From a virus (lineage: Duplodnaviria; Heunggongvirae; Uroviricota; Caudoviricetes): DNA of 7,605 bases. The position numbers were made by a program, and so were the translations under genes. Shown here one piece after another: positions 1 to 7,605 of this stretch. Numbering within the stretch: the first letter of the stretch is position 1; the number at the start of each line of letters is the position of its first letter. Under the pieces are notes generated by a model, which saw only the letters and a list, made by a program, of their open reading frames with translations, was not told where the DNA came from and made no database searches. The stretch spans positions 1-7,605 of IMG/VR virus record IMGVR_UViG_2693429676_000010, one strand, 5' to 3'.

Positions 1-73
1 CAAAGTGATCTACTATTCCGCGCAGCTATTTAGGAGTAGAGCGATAACGTGTTTTAATTCTGTCTCGTTCATT

Positions 74-229
74 TTACTCACCTGAATGTCTTCCCAACCA
101 ACGACGTGCGCCAGCTTCGGTTTTAAACGTTTTGCTTTTGGTATACGTCATGGCGGTGAATGTGCCGTCTTGATTGGGAAACACGCCACATACCAGAGAT
201 TCGTTGTTGCCAAGATCGATAGTATTCAT
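74..229 (-). CDS. small hypothetical prophage protein (51 aa from ATG at 229; the ORF extends to 292 only with a TTG start). Possibly YdaF-like, unverified
   Basis: ORF track 74..292 minus. Internal ATG at 227-229 is preceded by a GGGG Shine-Dalgarno-like run about 6 nt upstream, whereas the TTG at 292 has no recognisable RBS. Sits downstream of a terminator and a candidate promoter. No recognisable domain. Confidence 0.4.
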   Translation of the reverse strand: MNTIDLGNNESLVCGVFPNQDGTFTAMTYTKSKTFKTEAGARRWLGRHSGE

Positions 230-409
230 GTTGACCCCATTTCCCCTTAACGCCGGGTGGCGGAACGTTTTATCTACTGCGCTTTGTATCAATCAACAAC
301 TGCCGTCATGTTCGTATGCCTCAGGCTGGCTACTTAGCCCTGTTCAGTGACTGGATAACTCGAGGTATTGTCCTGCCGTTCTCTGGTGGGGCGTTGTTTG
401 GATATGCTT

Positions 410-438
410 ATTAAACACAATTTGTTTTCTTGTGTCAA
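410..438 (-). promoter_or_regulatory. candidate sigma70 promoter for the small leftward ORF (-35 TTGACA, 17-nt spacer, -10 TTTAAT on minus strand)
   Basis: Plus-strand TGTCAA at 433-438 is a perfect TTGACA on the minus strand; plus-strand ATTAAA at 410-415 is TTTAAT on the minus strand; the spacer 416-432 is 17 nt. Confidence 0.35.
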
Positions 439-479
439 CACGCAATGTGTTTTATGGTGAGTGTCATATGATGATGCTA

Positions 480-504
480 CAAAAAAGCCCGCTGATAGCG
501 GGCT
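480..504 (-). terminator. rho-independent terminator of the leftward repressor transcript
   Basis: Perfect 8-bp stem AGCCCGCT (486-493) / AGCGGGCT (497-504) with a 3-nt loop. The plus-strand A6 run at 481-486 is a U-tract directly after the stem on the minus strand. Located 30 bp past the repressor stop at 535. Confidence 0.65.
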
Positions 505-534
505 GATTGGCATATTACTGTGATAGCAAGATCA

Positions 535-954
535 TTATTCCGGTGGGGGATTATCTTTAATCCTGCCTCTCAAATATTTTTCTACATACTCATCGATTTC
601 TTTTAGCCGGACTTCAAATAGCTCAATCATTCGTTGTTGTTCTGAGCCCGGTAGCTGGTTAAACAACTCAAGAAGTTTTCGTTGGGATTCATTTAACCAC
701 AATTCAGAAGATTCCTGTTCTCCAAAGAGGAGCTCAGGAGGAGATATGCCAAGTGCCTTTCCCAATACGACAGCGTCATGTACTCCAACATTTCTGCTGC
801 CCGCCTCATAGTTACCTATACGCGATTGCGTCCATCCGCAGATTTCAGCAAGTTTTCCTTGAGATAAACCAAGCTTCTGCCTGCGCTCTTTAAGACGCAT
901 TGCAATTTTGTCATTGAGCCTACTAGCGGCAATTTTTTCGTTTTCTTTTTCCAT
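535..954 (-). CDS. prophage repressor, HTH XRE family (cI/RacR-type), 139 aa, no S24 peptidase domain
   Basis: ORF 535..954 minus. Helix-turn-helix signature LGLSQGKLAEICGWTQSRIGNYEAG in the N-terminal half; short helical C-terminal region; AAGGA RBS upstream on the minus strand; divergent from a Cro-like gene; followed by a terminator. Confidence 0.85.
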   Translation of the reverse strand: MEKENEKIAASRLNDKIAMRLKERRQKLGLSQGKLAEICGWTQSRIGNYEAGSRNVGVHDAVVLGKALGISPPELLFGEQESSELWLNESQRKLLELFNQLPGSEQQRMIELFEVRLKEIDEYVEKYLRGRIKDNPPPE

Positions 955-1050
955 TGCATCCTTGTATCACGAATCGTGATTTACATAAAACACAAAACAG
1001 CTTGGCTATATAACACAAGGTGTGTTTAAAATTGTCATCGGAGGTTTTCA
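955..1050. promoter_or_regulatory. divergent promoter/operator region between repressor and cro-like gene
   Basis: 96-bp AT-rich intergenic region containing a perfect 7-bp-arm palindrome ATCACGA-A-TCGTGAT (966-980) and an inverted repeat ACACA-AGG-TGTGT (1013-1025); TTTACA at 980-985 and TTGGCT at 1002-1007 are possible -35 elements. Exact promoter assignment not resolved. Confidence 0.5.
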
Positions 1051-1293
1051 ATGAACAAAATTTCAACATATCGAAAACAGCTTGGGCTGTCTCAAAGACA
1101 ACTTGCTGTTCAGTTAGGGTGGATACAAAGCCGACTGGCAAATTACGAAGCAAATTTTCGTACCCCTGGACTAGAGGAGTGCAGAAAAATTGTTTCTACC
1201 CTTAATCGGCTTGGCGCTCATTGTGGACTTGACGATGTATTCCCCCCAGACGGTAAGCATAGCGAAAACAGCATAGGAGCGGTTGATTCATGA
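1051..1293 (+). CDS. Cro-like HTH (XRE) transcriptional regulator, 80 aa
   Basis: ORF 1051..1293 plus. GGAGG RBS 6 nt upstream of the ATG; HTH signature LGLSQRQLAVQLGWIQSRLANYE; divergent from the repressor; its stop overlaps the next start (ATGA at 1290-1293). Confidence 0.8.
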   Translation: MNKISTYRKQLGLSQRQLAVQLGWIQSRLANYEANFRTPGLEECRKIVSTLNRLGAHCGLDDVFPPDGKHSENSIGAVDS

Positions 1294-1559
1294 AAATCAG
1301 GCATGAGCACATCGAATCAGTGTTGTTAGCCCTGGCAGCCGAAAAAGGGCAGGCGTGGGTCGCTAACGCAATTACTGAAGAATATCTGCGCCAGGGGGGC
1401 GGCGAATTGCCCCTTGTACCAGGCAAGGACTGGAACAATCAGCAGAATATCTATCACCGTTGGTTGAAAGGTGAAACGAAAGCGCAAAGGGAAAAAATTC
1501 AGAAACTGATCCCTGCGGTTCTGGCAATTCTTCCGCGNCGCTTGGCTCAGTGCGAATAA
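1290..1559 (+). CDS. ydaT: CII-like regulator (YdaT-type), copy 1, truncated: genuine homology ends at the N at 1538 and the last 7 codons are junction-derived
   Basis: The N-terminal 82 aa are near-identical to the 1994..2415 copy. From recall, resembles Rac prophage YdaT. The sequence after the N at 1538 is antisense of a RacR-like gene, so the stop at 1557-1559 is not the native one. Confidence 0.6.
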   Translation: MKIRHEHIESVLLALAAEKGQAWVANAITEEYLRQGGGELPLVPGKDWNNQQNIYHRWLKGETKAQREKIQKLIPAVLAILPXRLAQCE

Positions 1560-1706
1560 TCTTTTCCCCGCCGGCTGTGTTTCATCTCTTTCCCATTGAG
1601 AAATTGTTACGTGAGCCACTTTGACCAGCTTACCTAATGCGGCCTGAGACAGTTTTAATTTTTTACGCCTATGTAAGAGGCGAGCACCGAAGGTTTCGTT
1701 TTTCAT
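1539..1706 (-). pseudogene. racR: RacR-like HTH repressor, 5' fragment only (first ~56 codons), truncated at the N at 1538
   Basis: The minus ORF starts at ATG 1706 and reads MKNETFGARLLHRRKKLKLSQAALGKLVKVAHVTISQWERDETQ (HTH). Past the N it continues only as antisense of ydaT copy 1. Divergent from the ydaS-like gene, as in Rac. Symbol by recalled synteny. Confidence 0.55.
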
Positions 1707-1782
1707 ATTAGGGAATTCTAATTTTTCTTGACTTAGGTTTCTCTACGATCTAGTTTCCTTAGGAAAATCTAAGGAGCTCGAT
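1707..1782. promoter_or_regulatory. divergent regulatory region between racR-like and ydaS-like genes
   Basis: Minus-strand TAGAAT (plus ATTCTA 1715-1720) lies 8 nt upstream of the racR-like ATG with no SD, suggesting a leaderless transcript. TTGACT at 1728-1733. CTTAGG repeats at 1732-1737 and 1758-1763, CTAAGG at 1769-1774, and an inverted repeat TTTCC-TTA-GGAAA at 1754-1766. Confidence 0.4.
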
Positions 1783-2010
1783 ATGTTGAAAATTGATGCT
1801 ATAGCGTTTTTTGGCAGCAAAACAAAGCTTGCCAATGCCGCAGGAGTTAGGCTGGCAAGCATTGCTGCATGGGGGGAACTGGTTCCTGAAGGTCGCGCGA
1901 TGCGCCTGCAAGAGGCATCTGGCGGGGAACTTCAGTACGACCCCAAAGTTTATGACGAATATCGTAAGGCAAAACGACCTTGGAAGGTGATTCATGAAAA
2001 TCAGGCATGA
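1783..2010 (+). CDS. ydaS: YdaS-like Cro-type regulator, 75 aa
   Basis: ORF 1783..2010 plus. Strong RBS TAAGGAG 6 nt upstream; divergent from the racR-like gene; its 3' end overlaps the ydaT copy-2 start by 17 nt. Symbol from recalled Rac gene order. Confidence 0.75.
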   Translation: MLKIDAIAFFGSKTKLANAAGVRLASIAAWGELVPEGRAMRLQEASGGELQYDPKVYDEYRKAKRPWKVIHENQA

Positions 2011-2415
2011 GCACATCGAATCAGTGCTGTTGCCCTGGCAGCCGAAAAAGGGCAGGCGTGGGTCGCTAACGCAATTACTGAAGAATATCTGCGCCAGGGG
2101 GGCGGCGAATTGCCCCTTGTACCAGGCAAGGACTGGAACAATCAGCAGAATATCTATCACCGTTGGTTGAAAGGTGAAACGAAAGCGCAAAGGGAAAAAA
2201 TTCAGAAACTGATCCCTGCGGTTCTGGCAATTCTTCCGCGCGAGCTGCGTCACCGACTCTGCATCTTCGATACCCTGGAACGCCGTGCATTACTGGCGGC
2301 GCAGGAAGCGTTGAGTACGGCAATTGATGCGCATGATGATGCAGTCCAGGCCGTTTACCGGAAAGCGCATTTCAGCGGCGGCGGGTCTTCCGACGATTCT
2401 GTCATTGTTCATTAA
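1994..2415 (+). pseudogene. ydaT: CII-like regulator (YdaT-type), copy 2, about 140 codons, interrupted by a 1-nt deletion near codon 14
   Basis: Near-identical to copy 1, but GTTAGCC in copy 1 is GTTGCC here (around 2030), shifting frame from the ATG at 1994 into a stop at about 2168-2170. The ORF track recovers the remainder as 2110..2415 in another frame. Confidence 0.6.
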
Positions 2416-2478
2416 GCAAAAGTTTCCATGCTGTTTGTGCTTATTCTAAGCAACCGGGCAGCATCATACGGGGCAATT

Positions 2479-3627
2479 ATGGCCGCATTACCATACATGC
2501 AACTGTACATAGCTGATTACCTGGCTGACACCATGCATTTGTCAGCAGAGGAGCACGGCGCGTATTTGTTGCTGATGTTCAATTACTGGCAAACAGGAAA
2601 GCCAATACCCAAAAACAGGTTGGCAAAAATTGCCCGTCTGACTAACGAGCGATGGGTTGATGTTGAACCATCCTTGCGGGAGTTTTTTTGTGATAACGGC
2701 GACGAATGGATGCATCTTCGGATTGAGGAAGATCTGGCATCTGTCAGAGAAAAATTAACCAAAAAATCAGCCGCAGGAAAAGCATCTGTTCAGGCCAGAA
2801 GAAGCAGAAAGGAAGCAGATGTTCAAACAAAACAAGAGAGAAATTTAACAGGTGTTCAAACAGATGTTGGAGTGATGTTCGAACATGATGCCAACACAAA
2901 GGCAACTAATAAAGATACAGATAAAGATCTAAAAACAGATCTAACCCATCCCAAACCCTTCCCTTCCGGAAGGGAGTTTCGGGATTTTGTGGCTGGAGTG
3001 CTTGAGGGGAGATTATCTGGCGGTACTGCAGCGGAATTTTGTAATTCTGCGGTGGTTGCGTTGCAGGCTGCTGGCCTGGATGTCTGTCGTGAGTATCCGG
3101 TGCCAGAGCGTGGTGACGGTTGCGGAGGGCGGATTGATATCGTCGTGACTGACAGGAACGGTGTCCGGTGTGGGAGCGAGCTTGACCGAAATTCTCCGCG
3201 ACAGAAATCACTGCTCAAAATCGGTGCTGTTGAAACCGGGATATGTGTCTTGCGGCGCAGTGATATCGCAAGGCACACCGAGCAGGGAATTCTGGTTATC
3301 GGTGGGGCTGTTCGCCAGAAAAAATTTGACCCGTTGTCAGTTGATCTGCCCGACTGGTTGCCAGAAACACTCTGGCATGAGTGGGTCCAGTTCAGGCAGG
3401 CATTGCGAAAACCGATTCGAACGGAGCAGGGCGCTAACGGGGCGATACGGGAACTGGAAAAATTCCGTCAGCAGGGTTTTACACCTGAGCAGGTGATTCG
3501 ACACAGCATCGCCAATGAATACCAGGGCCTGTTCGCGCCGAAAGGTGTTCGGCCTGAGACGTTGCTCCGACAGGTTAACACCGTCTCGTTGCCGGACAGT
3601 GCGATCCCGCCAGGCTTCAGGGGGTAA
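2479..3627 (+). CDS. replication initiator / replisome organiser, N-terminal DUF1376 (YdaU-like), 382 aa from ATG 2479 (the ORF extends to 2428)
   Basis: ORF 2428..3627 plus. The conserved DUF1376-like N-terminus PYMQLYIADYLADTMHLSAEEHGAY sits 5 residues after the ATG at 2479, so I prefer that start. Low-complexity linker encoded by repeats; C-terminal domain conserved in the other copies; stop overlaps the SD of the DnaC-like gene. Confidence 0.8.
   Translation: MAALPYMQLYIADYLADTMHLSAEEHGAYLLLMFNYWQTGKPIPKNRLAKIARLTNERWVDVEPSLREFFCDNGDEWMHLRIEEDLASVREKLTKKSAAGKASVQARRSRKEADVQTKQERNLTGVQTDVGVMFEHDANTKATNKDTDKDLKTDLTHPKPFPSGREFRDFVAGVLEGRLSGGTAAEFCNSAVVALQAAGLDVCREYPVPERGDGCGGRIDIVVTDRNGVRCGSELDRNSPRQKSLLKIGAVETGICVLRRSDIARHTEQGILVIGGAVRQKKFDPLSVDLPDWLPETLWHEWVQFRQALRKPIRTEQGANGAIRELEKFRQQGFTPEQVIRHSIANEYQGLFAPKGVRPETLLRQVNTVSLPDSAIPPGFRG
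2787..2946. other. candidate phage origin of replication embedded in the initiator gene (iteron-like repeats plus AT-rich tract)
   Basis: TGTTCA at 2787-2792; TGTTCAAACA at 2820-2829 and 2853-2862; palindromic TGTTCGAACA at 2876-2885 (spacings 33, 33, 23 bp). Followed by a roughly 75% AT tract at 2906-2945 with two AGATCT/GATC sites (2925-2930, 2937-2942). Analogous to lambda ori inside gene O. Confidence 0.45.
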
Positions 3628-3633
3628 CAGACC

Positions 3634-4380
3634 ATGAAAAATATTGCGACAGGAGGCGTTCTGGAGCGTATCCGCAGACTGACCCCACCACATGTAACCG
3701 CCCCATTCAGAACGGTTGCGGAGTGGCGCGAGTGGCAACTTGCTGAAGGCCAGAAACGTTGCGAGGAGATCAACCGCCTGAATCGTCAGTTGCGGGTGGA
3801 AAAAATCCTGAACCGCTCCGGCATCCAGCCGTTGCACCGGAAGTGTTCGTTTGCGAATTACCGGGCGCAGAACGACGGTCAGCGACATGCACTGAGTCAG
3901 GCGAAATCCATAGCTGACGAACTGATGACAGGCTGTACGAATTTTGTGTTCAGCGGTAAGCCCGGCACCGGAAAAAATCATCTTGCAGACGCGATTGGCA
4001 ACCGGCTGATGGCGAAGGGGCGTAGCGTGATTATCGTCACCGTGTCCGATGTCATGAGCGTGTTGCATGAGAGCTACGACAACGGCAAATCCGGTGAAAA
4101 ATTTTTACAGGAGCTTTGTGGTGTTGACCTGCTGGTCCTGGATGAAATTGGCATGCAGCGGGATACGAAAAACGAGCAGGTGGTACTGAACCAGATTGTT
4201 GATCGCCGGACGGCATCGTTACGCGGTGTGGGGATGCTGACAAATATTAACCATGCAGCGATGAATACACTTCTCGGCGAGCGGGTGATGGATCGCATGG
4301 TCATGAACGGCGGGCGCTGGGTGAATTTTAACTGGGAGAGCTGGCGTCCGAATGTTAGCCATTCGAGGGTTGTTAAGTAG
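3634..4380 (+). CDS. ydaV: DnaC-like helicase loader (AAA+ ATPase, YdaV-type), copy A, 248 aa
   Basis: Walker A GKPGTGKN at 3955-3978, as in E. coli DnaC; Walker B DLLVLDEIG; C-terminal LGERVMDRM motif; GGGG SD overlapping the upstream stop, suggesting translational coupling. Symbol by recalled Rac synteny. Confidence 0.9.
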   Translation: MKNIATGGVLERIRRLTPPHVTAPFRTVAEWREWQLAEGQKRCEEINRLNRQLRVEKILNRSGIQPLHRKCSFANYRAQNDGQRHALSQAKSIADELMTGCTNFVFSGKPGTGKNHLADAIGNRLMAKGRSVIIVTVSDVMSVLHESYDNGKSGEKFLQELCGVDLLVLDEIGMQRDTKNEQVVLNQIVDRRTASLRGVGMLTNINHAAMNTLLGERVMDRMVMNGGRWVNFNWESWRPNVSHSRVVK

Positions 4381-4394
4381 TTTCAGGAGGATTT

Positions 4395-4620
4395 ATGGCG
4401 AAACCTTTTACTCCCGAACAGCGGGAAGAACTGAAGACGCGAATTGTGGAACTCGTGCATCAGGACGGTCGGGTCACGATTCGGCAGTTGTCAGATGAAA
4501 CAGGTATCAGTCGTGCGTCTGTCGGTCGCTTATGCATAGAACTGGTCGCAAGTGGTGATGTATATAATTCTGGCTACGGGGTATTTCCCTCTGAACAGGC
4601 TCGCAAGGACTGGCAAAGCG
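4395..4620 (+). CDS. small putative DNA-binding protein (HTH-like, YdaW-like), 5' portion; interrupted by the N-run at 4621
   Basis: AGGAGG RBS 6 nt upstream of ATG 4395; HTH-like stretch VTIRQLSDETGISRASVGRLCIELVASGDV. The ORF-track continuation through the Ns into (RG)n is an artefact of reading through the gap. Confidence 0.6.
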
Positions 4621-4637
4621 NNNNNNNNNNNNNNNNN
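4621..4637. other. run of 17 N (assembly gap or masked bases)
   Basis: Directly visible. Flanking sequences are not contiguous in homology. Confidence 0.95.
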
Positions 4638-4638
4638 A

Positions 4639-4680
4639 GAGGAAGAGGAAGAGGAAGAGGAAGAGGAAGAGGAAGAGGAA
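4639..4680. repeat. hexanucleotide microsatellite (GAGGAA)x7 immediately after the N-run
   Basis: Seven perfect tandem GAGGAA units at 4639-4680. Not in frame with any credible gene. Confidence 0.9.
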
Positions 4681-4694
4681 GATCTAAATACTGA

Positions 4695-5030
4695 TCTCCC
4701 CCTCGCCAAAAACGAGCGTCTAAAAAATTCGAGCCGGAGGCTATTGAGCTGCCCGATTGGTTGCCGGAAACACTCTGGCATGAGTGGGTCCGGTTCAGAC
4801 AGGCATTGCGAAAACCGATTCGAACGGAGCAGGGCGCTAACGGGGCGATACGGGAACTGGAAAAATTCCGTCAGCAGGGTTTTACACCTGAGCAGGTGAT
4901 TCGACACAGCATCGCCAATGAATACCAGGGCCTGTTCGCGCCGAAAGGTGTTCGGCCTGAGACGTTGCTCCGACAGGTTAACACCGTCTCGTTGCCGGAC
5001 AGTGCGATCCCGCCAGGCTTCAGGGGGTAA
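4695..5030 (+). CDS. 3' fragment of a second, diverged initiator gene (C-terminal domain only), copy B
   Basis: In-frame stop at 4692-4694, then 111 codons. From LPDWLPETLWHEW onward it matches the copy-A C-terminus almost exactly (one Q-to-R change); upstream of about 4745 the sequence is unrelated to copy A. No upstream initiator body is present in the window. Confidence 0.5.
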   Translation, partial: SPPRQKRASKKFEPEAIELPDWLPETLWHEWVRFRQALRKPIRTEQGANGAIRELEKFRQQGFTPEQVIRHSIANEYQGLFAPKGVRPETLLRQVNTVSLPDSAIPPGFRG

Positions 5031-5036
5031 CGGACC

Positions 5037-5783
5037 ATGAAAAATATTGCGACAGGCGGCGTTCTGGAACGCATCCGCCGACTGACCCCGCCACATGTAA
5101 CCGCCCCATTCAGAACGGTAGCGGAGTGGCGCGAGTGGCAACTTGCTGAAGGCCAGAAACGTAGCGAGGAGATCAACCGCCTGAATCGCCAGTTGCGGGT
5201 GGAAAAAATTCTGAATCGCTCAGGCATCCAGCCGTTGCACCGTAAATGCTCGTTTGCGAATTACCAGGTGCAGAACGACGGCCAGCGATACGCGTTAAGC
5301 CAGGCGAAATCCATCGCCGATGAACTGATGACCGGGTGTACAAATTTTGCGTTCAGCGGAAAACTTGGTACCGGGAAGAATCACTTAGCGGCAGCTATCG
5401 GGAATCGCCTGCTGAAAGACGGTCAGACAGTGATTGTGGTTACCGTGGCTGATGTTATGAGCGCCCTGCACGCCAGCTATGACGACGGGCAGTCAGGCGA
5501 AAAATTTTTGCGGGAGCTGTGCGAAGTGGATCTGCTGGTTCTTGATGAAATTGGCATTCAGCGCGAGACGAAAAACGAGCAGGTGGTGCTGCACCAGATT
5601 GTTGATCGCCGGACAGCGTCGATGCGCAGCGTGGGGATGCTGACAAACCTGAACTATGAGGTGATGAAAACATTGCTCGGCGAGCGGGTGATGGATCGCA
5701 TGGTCATGAACGGCGGGCGCTGGGTGAATTTTAACTGGGAGAGCTGGCGTCCGAATGTTAGCCATTCGAGGGTTGTTAAGTAG
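5037..5783 (+). CDS. DnaC-like helicase loader, copy B (diverged paralog/allele), 248 aa
   Basis: Same length and architecture as copy A. About 30 of 248 residues differ by manual alignment; the nucleotide differences I checked in the first 66 nt are all synonymous. Walker A reads GKLGTGKN (P to L). Confidence 0.85.
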   Translation: MKNIATGGVLERIRRLTPPHVTAPFRTVAEWREWQLAEGQKRSEEINRLNRQLRVEKILNRSGIQPLHRKCSFANYQVQNDGQRYALSQAKSIADELMTGCTNFAFSGKLGTGKNHLAAAIGNRLLKDGQTVIVVTVADVMSALHASYDDGQSGEKFLRELCEVDLLVLDEIGIQRETKNEQVVLHQIVDRRTASMRSVGMLTNLNYEVMKTLLGERVMDRMVMNGGRWVNFNWESWRPNVSHSRVVK

Positions 5784-5797
5784 TTTCAGGAGGATTT

Positions 5798-5995
5798 ATG
5801 GCGAAACCTTTTACTCCCGAACAGCGGGAAGAACTGAAGACGCGAATTGTGGAACTCGTGCATCAGGACGGTCGGGTCACGATTCGGCAGTTGTCAGATG
5901 AAACAGGTATCAGTCGTGCGTCTGTCGGTCGCTTATGCATAGAACTGGTCGCAAGTGGTGATGTATATAATTCTGGCTACGGGGTATTTCCCTCT
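5798..5995 (+). CDS. YdaW-like small HTH gene, 5' portion, truncated at the N at 5996
   Basis: Identical to the start of the 4395 copy, with the same AGGAGG RBS; homology ends at the N. Confidence 0.55.
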
Positions 5996-5996
5996 N

Positions 5997-6095
5997 CTGT
6001 TCGCGCCGAAAGGTGTTCGGCCTGAGACGTTGCTCCGACAGGTTAACACCGTCTCGTTGCCGGACAGTGCGATCCCGCCAGGCTTCAGGGGGTAA
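5997..6095 (+). CDS. 3' tail (last ~32 codons) of the initiator gene, copy C, beginning at the N junction
   Basis: Matches 3529-3627 of copy A, ending in the same TAA and SD context. Confidence 0.45.
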   Translation: MFAPKGVRPETLLRQVNTVSLPDSAIPPGFRG

Positions 6096-6101
6096 CAGAC
6101 C

Positions 6102-6848
6102 ATGAAAAATATTGCGACAGGAGGCGTTCTGGAGCGTATCCGCAGACTGACCCCACCACATGTAACCGCCCCATTCAGAACGGTTGCGGAGTGGCGCGAG
6201 TGGCAACTTGCTGAAGGCCAGAAACGTTGCGAGGAGATCAACCGCCTGAATCGTCAGTTGCGGGTGGAAAAAATCCTGAACCGCTCCGGCATCCAGCCGT
6301 TGCACCGGAAGTGTTCGTTTGCGAATTACCGGGCGCAGAACGACGGTCAGCGACATGCACTGAGTCAGGCGAAATCCATAGCTGACGAACTGATGACAGG
6401 CTGTACGAATTTTGTGTTCAGCGGTAAGCCCGGCACCGGAAAAAATCATCTTGCAGACGCGATTGGCAACCGGCTGATGGCGAAGGGGCGTAGCGTGATT
6501 ATCGTCACCGTGTCCGATGTCATGAGCGTGTTGCATGAGAGCTACGACAACGGCAAATCCGGTGAAAAATTTTTACAGGAGCTTTGTGGTGTTGACCTGC
6601 TGGTCCTGGATGAAATTGGCATGCAGCGGGATACGAAAAACGAGCAGGTGGTACTGAACCAGATTGTTGATCGCCGGACGGCATCGTTACGCGGTGTGGG
6701 GATGCTGACAAATATTAACCATGCAGCGATGAATACACTTCTCGGCGAGCGGGTGATGGATCGCATGGTCATGAACGGCGGGCGCTGGGTGAATTTTAAC
6801 TGGGAGAGCTGGCGTCCGAATGTTAGCCATTCGAGGGTTGTTAAGTAG
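6102..6848 (+). CDS. ydaV: DnaC-like helicase loader, copy C (protein identical to copy A)
   Basis: The ORF-track translation is identical to 3634..4380; the whole unit is offset by 2468 bp from copy A. Confidence 0.85.
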   Translation: MKNIATGGVLERIRRLTPPHVTAPFRTVAEWREWQLAEGQKRCEEINRLNRQLRVEKILNRSGIQPLHRKCSFANYRAQNDGQRHALSQAKSIADELMTGCTNFVFSGKPGTGKNHLADAIGNRLMAKGRSVIIVTVSDVMSVLHESYDNGKSGEKFLQELCGVDLLVLDEIGMQRDTKNEQVVLNQIVDRRTASLRGVGMLTNINHAAMNTLLGERVMDRMVMNGGRWVNFNWESWRPNVSHSRVVK

Positions 6849-6862
6849 TTTCAGGAGGATTT

Positions 6863-7231
6863 ATGGCGAAACCTTTTACTCCCGAACAGCGGGAAGAACT
6901 GAAGACGCGAATTGTGGAACTCGTGCATCAGGACGGTCGGGTCACGATTCGGCAGTTGTCAGATGAAACAGGTATCAGTCGTGCGTCTGTCGGTCGCTTA
7001 TGCATAGAACTGGTCGCAAGTGGTGATGTATATAATTCTGGCTACGGCTTATTCCCGTCTGAACAGGCTCGCAAGGACTGGCAAAGCGCCCGCAAAAAAC
7101 TCTCGAGAGTAAAGGTGAGGAAACCGGTTGTTGTTGATCCGGACCTTATCTGGTCATTACCTGACGGAGAAATACGCCGCTACGACAGGCGCCTGAATAT
7201 AATCTGTCGCGAGTGCCGGAAGAGCGAAGCT
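6863..7231 (+). CDS. YdaW-like small HTH gene, longest copy (123 codons before the N at 7232; native 3' end not determinable)
   Basis: Same start and RBS as the other copies, with a GVFP to GLFP variant near 7045. The continuation past the N is junction-derived. Confidence 0.6.
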
Positions 7232-7233
7232 NT

Positions 7234-7605
7234 ATGGCGAAACCTTTTACTCCCGAACAGCGGGAAGAACTGAAGACGCGAATTGTGGAACTCGTGCATC
7301 AGGACGGTCGGGTCACGATTCGGCAGTTGTCAGATGAAACAGGTATCAGTCGTGCGTCTGTCGGTCGCTTATGCATGGAACTGGTCGCAAGTGGTGATGT
7401 ATATAATTCTGGCTACGGGGTATTTCCCTCTGAACAGGCTCATAAAGACTGGCAAAACGCCCGCAAAAAGCTATCGAGGGTAAAGGTGAAGAAACCGGTT
7501 GTGGTTGATCCTGACCTTATCTGGTCATTACCAGACGGAGAAATACGCCGCTACGACAGGCGCCTGAATATAATCTGTCGCGAGTGCCGGAAGAGCGAAG
7601 CTATG
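7234..7605 (+). CDS. YdaW-like small HTH gene, further variant copy starting right after the N; open to the window end
   Basis: ATG at 7234-7236, no stop through 7605. Several substitutions relative to the 6863 copy (for example I to M at 7378, R to H and S to N around 7441-7456). Preceded by coding sequence, not by the usual RBS, so the placement is likely an assembly join. Confidence 0.45.
   Translation, partial: MAKPFTPEQREELKTRIVELVHQDGRVTIRQLSDETGISRASVGRLCMELVASGDVYNSGYGVFPSEQAHKDWQNARKKLSRVKVKKPVVVDPDLIWSLPDGEIRRYDRRLNIICRECRKSEAM

Follow-up and report, generated by a model that had tools for sequence, protein, structure and literature searches.

Three prophage regions come closest to the locus described here, namely the early regions of Rac and Qin (Kim) in Escherichia coli K-12 and that of CP-933P in E. 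coli O157:H7. In Rac, a repressor gene (racR) and a divergent Cro-like gene (ydaS) are followed by ydaT, ydaU and ydaV. Toxicity of the RacR/YdaS/YdaT system on ectopic expression was reported for K-12 (PMC5700377, PMC5700373, PMC11879457), and the toxicity of derepressed ydaS/ydaT, which an earlier note on the present DNA had mentioned, agrees with the literature (PMC5700377, PMC5700373). The toxin label is disputed (PMC5917428), and later work regards YdaS as a Cro-like and YdaT as a CII-like regulator and not as toxins (PMC5917428, PMC9986795, PMC11879457). Here, we analyzed a stretch of 7,605 nucleotides (nt) from the IMG/VR virus record IMGVR_UViG_2693429676_000010 (positions 1 to 7,605, in the following called the window). 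It contains two copies of ydaT, one of which carries a 1-nt deletion and lies close to an incomplete repressor gene. Very probably, this region belongs to a cryptic Rac-like lambdoid prophage of Shigella sonnei and forms its early regulatory switch, here as rendered by a mis-scaffolded draft assembly.

YdaT is a tetrameric CII-like activator. Its residues ~4-96 form a POU/helix-turn-helix (HTH) DNA-binding domain, and the four-helix bundle is made up of helix alpha6 (about residues 100-124; PMC9986795). The K-12 YdaT-box ATGATTCATGAAAATCAA was mapped by footprinting and spans the ATG of ydaT. From this box, YdaT activates a reverse promoter inside ydaS and raises repressor expression, with H56 and R57 being essential for binding (PMC11879457). 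For CP-933P, a box consensus of TTGATT-N6-AATCAA was described (PMC9986795). An identity of only ~30% was reported between its YdaT and that of Rac, and at this identity both proteins cross-activate each other's boxes (PMC11879457). The locus described here shares the functional logic of CP-933P YdaS-YdaT and of lambda cI-cro-cII, in which a tetrameric activator of CII type binds an inverted repeat where cro and cII meet and drives expression of the repressor from a reverse promoter (PMC9986795, PMC8630535, PMC11879457), although lambda CII is not homologous to YdaT. The YdaT of the window matched the PDB entries 8bt1 and 3c4r weakly (E = 1e-5 to 1e-6).

The window consists of five contigs split by four runs of N (1538, 4621-4637, 5996 and 7232). 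Its segments are largely repeats of each other, with identities of 75-100%. Finished S. sonnei 53G (HE616528.1) served as reference for painting the segments. This genome holds two paralogous Rac-like prophage early regions ~1.2 Mb apart, termed prophage A (locus L028, ~1.95 Mb) and prophage B (locus L009, ~0.77 Mb). Prophage A encodes an XRE repressor of 139 amino acids (aa), an 80-aa Cro-like protein, an intact 140-aa YdaT, a 399-aa YdaU and YdaV. In prophage B, a full 135-aa DicA-type repressor, DicC, a ydaT with the deletion, and B-type ydaU and ydaV were found. Judged by this painting, the window is a scaffold in which these two distant loci are interleaved (Table 1). Within the second copy of ydaT, both informative sites upstream were of B type, and all 16 downstream were of A type.

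How this arrangement would have arisen can be outlined. The ydaT-ydaV block is a repeat, and because of that the assembler would have broken the contigs there and cross-joined them. Contig 1 stops one base short of a site which differs between the prophages (C in A, T in B), and a stop at such a position is typical of a repeat in which the graph forks. Contig 1, derived from prophage A, would end at this fork inside ydaT and be followed by the single N. Contig 2 opens in the middle of dicA, passes dicC, covers 100 nt of the B copy of ydaT from its start, and then continues with prophage A sequence. The truncation of the repressor gene is a contig end, because position 1538 is one of the four N joins of the window. 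It is an assembly artefact and not a property of the genome.

Table 1. Features of the window and origin of its segments (positions refer to the 7,605-nt stretch; N6, six arbitrary bases)
Feature	Position	Strand	Remarks
Segment of prophage A	1-1537		100% 53G prophage A
Prophage A immunity cassette	535..1293	.	both genes intact
139-aa XRE-type repressor	535-954	-	
80-aa HTH Cro-like protein	1051-1293	+	
Prophage A YdaT-box TTGATTCATGAAAATCAG	1283-1300	+	1 mismatch to TTGATT-N6-AATCAA
ydaT copy 1	1290..1537	+	5' 248 nt of intact prophage A gene, allele GTGTTGTTAGCC; 100% to 53G L028
N join, single N	1538..1538	.	contig 1 (prophage A) / contig 2 (begins in prophage B)
Segment of prophage B	1539-2093		100% 53G prophage B, deletion included
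DicA-family immunity repressor, first 56 codons	1539..1706	-	HTH_3 match; ends exactly at N 1538
dicA-dicC intergenic control region	1707..1782	.	76 bp
Three TTAG-N6-CTAA operator-like sites	1708-1721, 1733-1746, 1759-1772		25-26 bp spacing
TTGACT -35-like hexamer	1728-1733		promoter assignment by eye
AAGGAG Shine-Dalgarno	1771-1776		
DicC-family P22-Cro-type regulator, 75 aa	1783..2010	+	intact
YdaT-box GTGATTCATGAAAATCAG	1987..2004	+	spans ydaT start codon; 2 mismatches to TTGATT-N6-AATCAA
ydaT copy 2, chimeric frame	1994..2415	+	1994-2093 prophage B copy, 2094-2415 prophage A alleles
Identical stretch of both prophage copies	2032..2093	.	62 nt; contig 2 changes from B to A here
Segment with prophage A alleles	2094-4617		including the 16 informative sites in the ydaT 3' part
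YdaU homologue, 399 aa	2428-3627	+	DUF1376
YdaV homologue, 248 aa	3634-4380	+	DnaC/IstB-like
Segment 4638-5995 (contig 3)	4638-5995	+	99.6% prophage B (53G L009 7124-8481) vs 90% prophage A
Gene content of contig 3	4638..5995	+	ydaU-B 3' part, ydaV-B, DUF977 5' part
Segment 5997-7231 (contig 4)	5997-7231	+	98.7% prophage A (L028); 100% sibling draft L005
Segment 7233-7605 (contig 5)	7233-7605	+	100% prophage A (L028); single N at 7232 joins contigs 4 and 5
Contigs 4 and 5 together	5997..7605	+	more copies of ydaU 3' end, ydaV, DUF977, prophage A type

The earlier note had taken the repressor fragment for the first ~56 codons of racR and the whole locus for a Rac-type racR-ydaS-ydaT module. The number of codons at the N join and the ydaT gene were confirmed, whereas the cassette in front of it turned out to be dicA-dicC by NCBIfam and BLASTP. 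The 56 residues in the window are 100% identical to the full-length orthologue of 53G, and the complete dicA gene does not lie within the window, as the remaining 79 codons are absent. Scored on the 53G orthologue, the NCBIfam DicA model NF007257 gave 237.3 bits over residues 1-135 of 135 (cutoff 101). The same protein is 62% identical to K-12 DicA. The 75-aa Cro-like protein of the window is 74% identical to K-12 DicC and exceeded the cutoffs of NCBIfam NF007282 for DicC (153.8 bits, cutoff 130) and of Pfam PF14549 for P22_Cro (49.7 bits, cutoff 30.2). It stayed below the gathering threshold of the YdaS_toxin family PF15943 (20.4 bits versus 30). By BLASTP, neither of the two window repressors showed similarity to K-12 RacR, and the 75-aa protein showed none to K-12 YdaS. 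The RacR equivalog model NF049929 did not match the 135-aa or the 139-aa repressor at E <= 0.01, while K-12 RacR itself scored 244.6 bits. Among the 753 collection blocks with the exact DicC protein are finished S. sonnei chromosomes.

The YdaT of the window is 97-98% identical to that of K-12 and matched Pfam PF06254 with 44.4 bits (cutoff 21). Identities to K-12 were 95%/89% for YdaU and 83% for YdaV. Only ydaT, ydaU and ydaV are true Rac orthologues in the window. The order of the genes from repressor to ydaV and the YdaT-box over the ydaT ATG are further features shared with Rac. Unlike in Rac, the repressor and the Cro-like protein are unrelated to RacR and YdaS, the B copy of ydaT is frameshifted, and the YdaU homologue of the window is ~127 aa longer. 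The cassette resembles that of Qin, which likewise has a divergent pair of a 135-aa DicA-family repressor and a 75-76-aa P22-Cro-type DicC, TTAG-N6-CTAA half-sites and a TTGACT -35 hexamer. A DUF1391 gene beyond the repressor is a further point of agreement. Differences to Qin were also visible. At 62% repressor identity, the immunity specificity of the S. sonnei prophage may differ. In Qin, dicC is followed by the remnant ydfX, in S. sonnei by a Rac-type ydaT (97% identical to K-12 YdaT if repaired), and the leftward operon is cut by insertion sequence (IS) elements in S. sonnei. A Qin-type dicA-dicC cassette ahead of a Rac-type ydaT-ydaU-ydaV block represents ordinary lambdoid mosaicism. Overall, lambdoid switches of this DicA/DicC/YdaT kind are already known, and one gene of the present switch is a pseudogene.

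K-12 YdfX (L037 2847-3137, downstream of dicC in Qin) was found weakly similar to residues 50-78 of YdaT (E about 5e-6), which suggests that a CII analogue of the YdaT type was once present in Qin as well, in the corresponding place.

The 1-nt deletion which had been placed near codon 14 of the second ydaT copy is present. It removes the third base of codon 13, between positions 2031 and 2032. At this site the two copies differ by one T-to-C change and the missing base (GTGTTGTTAGCC versus GTGCTGTT-GCC), and from 1329/2032 to the end of copy 1 they are identical for 209 nt. The frameshift leaves a 58-aa out-of-frame product and a 101-aa remnant open reading frame (ORF) at 2110-2415, which starts with TTG at 2110 and is 98% identical to K-12 YdaT residues 40-140. 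The deletion is the sole lesion of the gene. Re-insertion of an A gave an open frame of 140 codons, and the repaired gene is 1 nt away from the intact gene of E. coli FDAARGOS_944. All ten S. sonnei loci carrying this exact DicC protein have the deletion. They include finished chromosomes from different centres and platforms as well as the draft L017, and span lineages 2.1, 2.8.2 and 3.1.1. By exact-protein look-ups, HE616528.1 (53G) and CP032523, CP044151 and CP022672 (S. sonnei, lineages 2.1 and 3.1.1) were located as finished chromosomes. The deletion was absent from all 833 complete E. coli genomes holding the stretch, a collection which does not include Shigella. Judged by its occurrence in these loci, the deletion in the ydaT of prophage B is a genuine inherited mutation.

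Copy 2 has no intact frame for the N-terminal DNA-binding domain. On structural grounds, the YdaT of prophage B is predicted to be non-functional, because it loses its entire DNA-binding domain to the frameshift at codon 13, and a restart at the TTG would lack residues 1-39 and with them alpha1 and alpha2. Prophage B would retain intact DicA, DicC, operators and YdaT-box. Given the cross-activation between Rac and CP-933P at only ~30% identity, the box of prophage B may respond in trans to the intact YdaT of prophage A. The frameshift itself probably reflects neutral decay in an IS-riddled cryptic prophage; this is the simplest reading because the left arm of prophage B is cut by IS elements. 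S. sonnei would offer a natural frameshift of one ydaT copy, with repressor, operators and YdaT-box kept and a second copy intact. We consider this a modest footnote to the Rac/YdaT literature and not a new system.

The leftward arm of S. sonnei prophage B (L009, L008-L016, locus ~2000-5100) contains several IS elements with HTH_Tnp_1/rve transposases and a truncated Rha gene. In the intact E. coli relative L002, dicB and DUF1482 genes are found in this arm.

The change from B to A sequence within ydaT could also be explained by real recombination or gene conversion. A single molecule would then carry dicA-dicC, a ydaT with frameshifted 5' end and A-type 3' end, and the 399-aa ydaU. The truncation of the repressor would remain a contig end also in this case. 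The copies share identical stretches of 62-209 nt, which could support homologous exchange, and other mosaics occur in several drafts. However, all three long assemblies with the 399-aa YdaU have module A with the intact allele, and the ten DicC loci without exception have module B with B-type downstream sequence. In addition, segment 3 of the window is a B-type downstream contig of its own, and the A-type contig with the 5' part of ydaT ends at the fork. This is the pattern expected of a collapsed repeat. Furthermore, two prophages lying far apart in 53G alternate within 7,605 nt. We therefore consider a true recombinant unlikely and favour the mis-scaffolded two-prophage draft. We are aware that several points speak against this preference. 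A real B::A recombinant ydaT in this strain would be at odds with it, and six sibling drafts combining module A with the deletion allele (see below) could reflect real gene conversion. The S. sonnei origin of the window was derived from its identity to S. sonnei genomes, and trans-complementation by prophage A YdaT as well as neutrality of the frameshift are effects that could operate but were inferred by us.

For the two lesions, the earlier note had proposed either assembly or sequencing errors, or a decay in which the toxic gene was inactivated while the repressor was lost. An assembly error accounts for the truncation of the repressor at the N join. For the ydaT deletion, its absence from the 833 E. 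coli genomes would fit an error in an intact gene, but ten independent S. sonnei genomes carry it and Shigella was not part of the collection searched, which leaves an error with almost no probability. A coupled decay, with loss of the repressor and inactivation of toxic ydaT as compensating or permitting step, has a plausible basis in K-12, where RacR depletion is lethal via YdaS and YdaT (PMC5700377, PMC5700373) and repressor loss would select for ydaT inactivation. It is refuted by the loci themselves. A full 135-aa repressor is called next to the deletion in nine of the ten, including all finished chromosomes among them; at the tenth, the draft contig L017, no gene was called at the repressor position. 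Moreover, the truncation coincides with the N join, the repressor is of DicA and not of RacR type, and the 53G genome has a second, intact ydaT. This scenario is extremely improbable as well. In E. coli, motifs of the type X-XXA-AAG are prone to frameshifting. If ribosomes starting at the normal ATG slipped by -1 at CCG-AAA-AAG (2042-2050), ~13 nt past the deletion, the YdaT frame would be restored and a near-full-length protein made with changes at residues 14-19 only, so that the toxic CII-like activator would be throttled to trace levels rather than lost. Only the mutant frame has the A-AAG lysine motif in the proper register. Nevertheless, the motif is imperfect, with G instead of A at the first position, no Shine-Dalgarno-like stimulator was seen upstream, the downstream RNA fold is no better than that of shuffled sequences (z = 0.04), and the intact paralogue makes selection for such decoding unnecessary. 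Both the slip and the trace expression it would provide are very unlikely. A YdaS-YdaT fusion by readthrough of the TGA was rejected, as the common phase of dicC and the post-deletion ydaT frame is a coincidence, and no supporting feature was found.

The spacer between dicA and dicC has the layout of a candidate lambdoid CI-Cro immunity switch, with three operator-like sites between the divergent repressor and cro genes. Three of the four TTAG-N6-CTAA matches in the window cluster in this spacer. The count for the whole window was not significant by itself (13 of 200 shuffles reached 4), and what argues for operators is that the sites cluster, are evenly spaced and are conserved in K-12 dicA-dicC, whose intergenic region has the same half-site design and TTGACT. 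A generic sigma-70/terminator scan of positions 900-2500 reported no promoter in the dicA-dicC spacer and a single promoter-like site in module A, a yield that did not exceed the shuffled expectation. Promoter assignments were therefore made by eye only. A finder for inverted and direct repeats, applied to both intergenic regions, returned nothing useful for module B; the operator-like arms of 4 nt are shorter than its seed length. For the YdaT-box pattern with up to 3 mismatches, the total was at chance level (5 found, 4.6 expected), and the only meaningful matches are the two at the ydaT start codons, which coincide with the footprinted K-12 site. The repeat common to both prophages starts almost exactly at the YdaT-box over the ydaT start, which places the mosaic junction between immunity cassette and ydaT block at a regulatory site.

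The repressor and the Cro-like protein of the prophage A immunity cassette are unrelated to those of prophage B, and the ydaT-ydaU-ydaV block behind them is nearly the same in both prophages. The 80-aa Cro-like protein of prophage A occurs in 19,110 collection blocks; at all ten places listed, its neighbour is the 139-aa repressor, the context is of Rac type and the 140-aa YdaT is intact. The finished 53G genome has the order module A, intact YdaT and then the 399-aa protein, and the intact 140-aa YdaT is called with module A in 53G and in two further long S. sonnei assemblies (L028-L030). The YdaU homologue of prophage A has ~127 residues beyond the 285 aa of K-12 YdaU, located at about residues 172-297 of 399. 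This segment gave no Pfam hit. By eye it shows a PD-(D/E)xK-like pattern (GRIDIVVTD...SELDRNSPRQK), a sign that a nuclease-like domain may have been inserted into a DUF1376 replication protein.

Sibling drafts showed comparable joins. In L032, prophage A is connected by a single N to the middle of the B copy of ydaT. Six drafts (L004-L007, L034 and L036, i.e., GCA_001260675, GCA_001251255, GCA_001253915, GCA_001250835, GCA_001253635 and GCA_001252175) hold the B deletion allele in an otherwise A-type contig, and the 58-aa frameshift product is called there. The combination of module A and deletion allele was found in none of the three long assemblies examined (L028-L030). Other A/B mosaics and single-N joins from A to B were likewise observed in sibling drafts and in no finished genome. 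The pattern of the six drafts probably results from bubble-popping in the collapsed repeat. The main message of this case is a caution. When prophage repeats collapse in short-read drafts of Shigella and E. coli, genes falsely appear "truncated" at N joins and chimeric paralogues arise. The B frameshift in the prophage A gene of the six drafts would mislead pseudogene and pan-genome analyses.

Two observations concern the remaining part of the window. Segment 4 is only 98.7% identical to 53G prophage A, and the final ~40 nt of segment 2 (4580-4620) change alleles, which hints at a third DUF977-containing copy or at more mosaicism at contig ends. An in-frame (GAGGAA)n repeat encoding poly-Glu was found in the ydaU homologue of prophage B, at window positions 4639-4680 beside the 17-N gap. 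Its length is 42 nt in the window, possibly shortened by the gap, and varies between 18 and 66 nt (3 to 11 units) in related genomes (L001, L008-L017), comparable to a variable-number tandem repeat. This variation may explain the differing gene-caller lengths for the ydaU ORF of prophage B.

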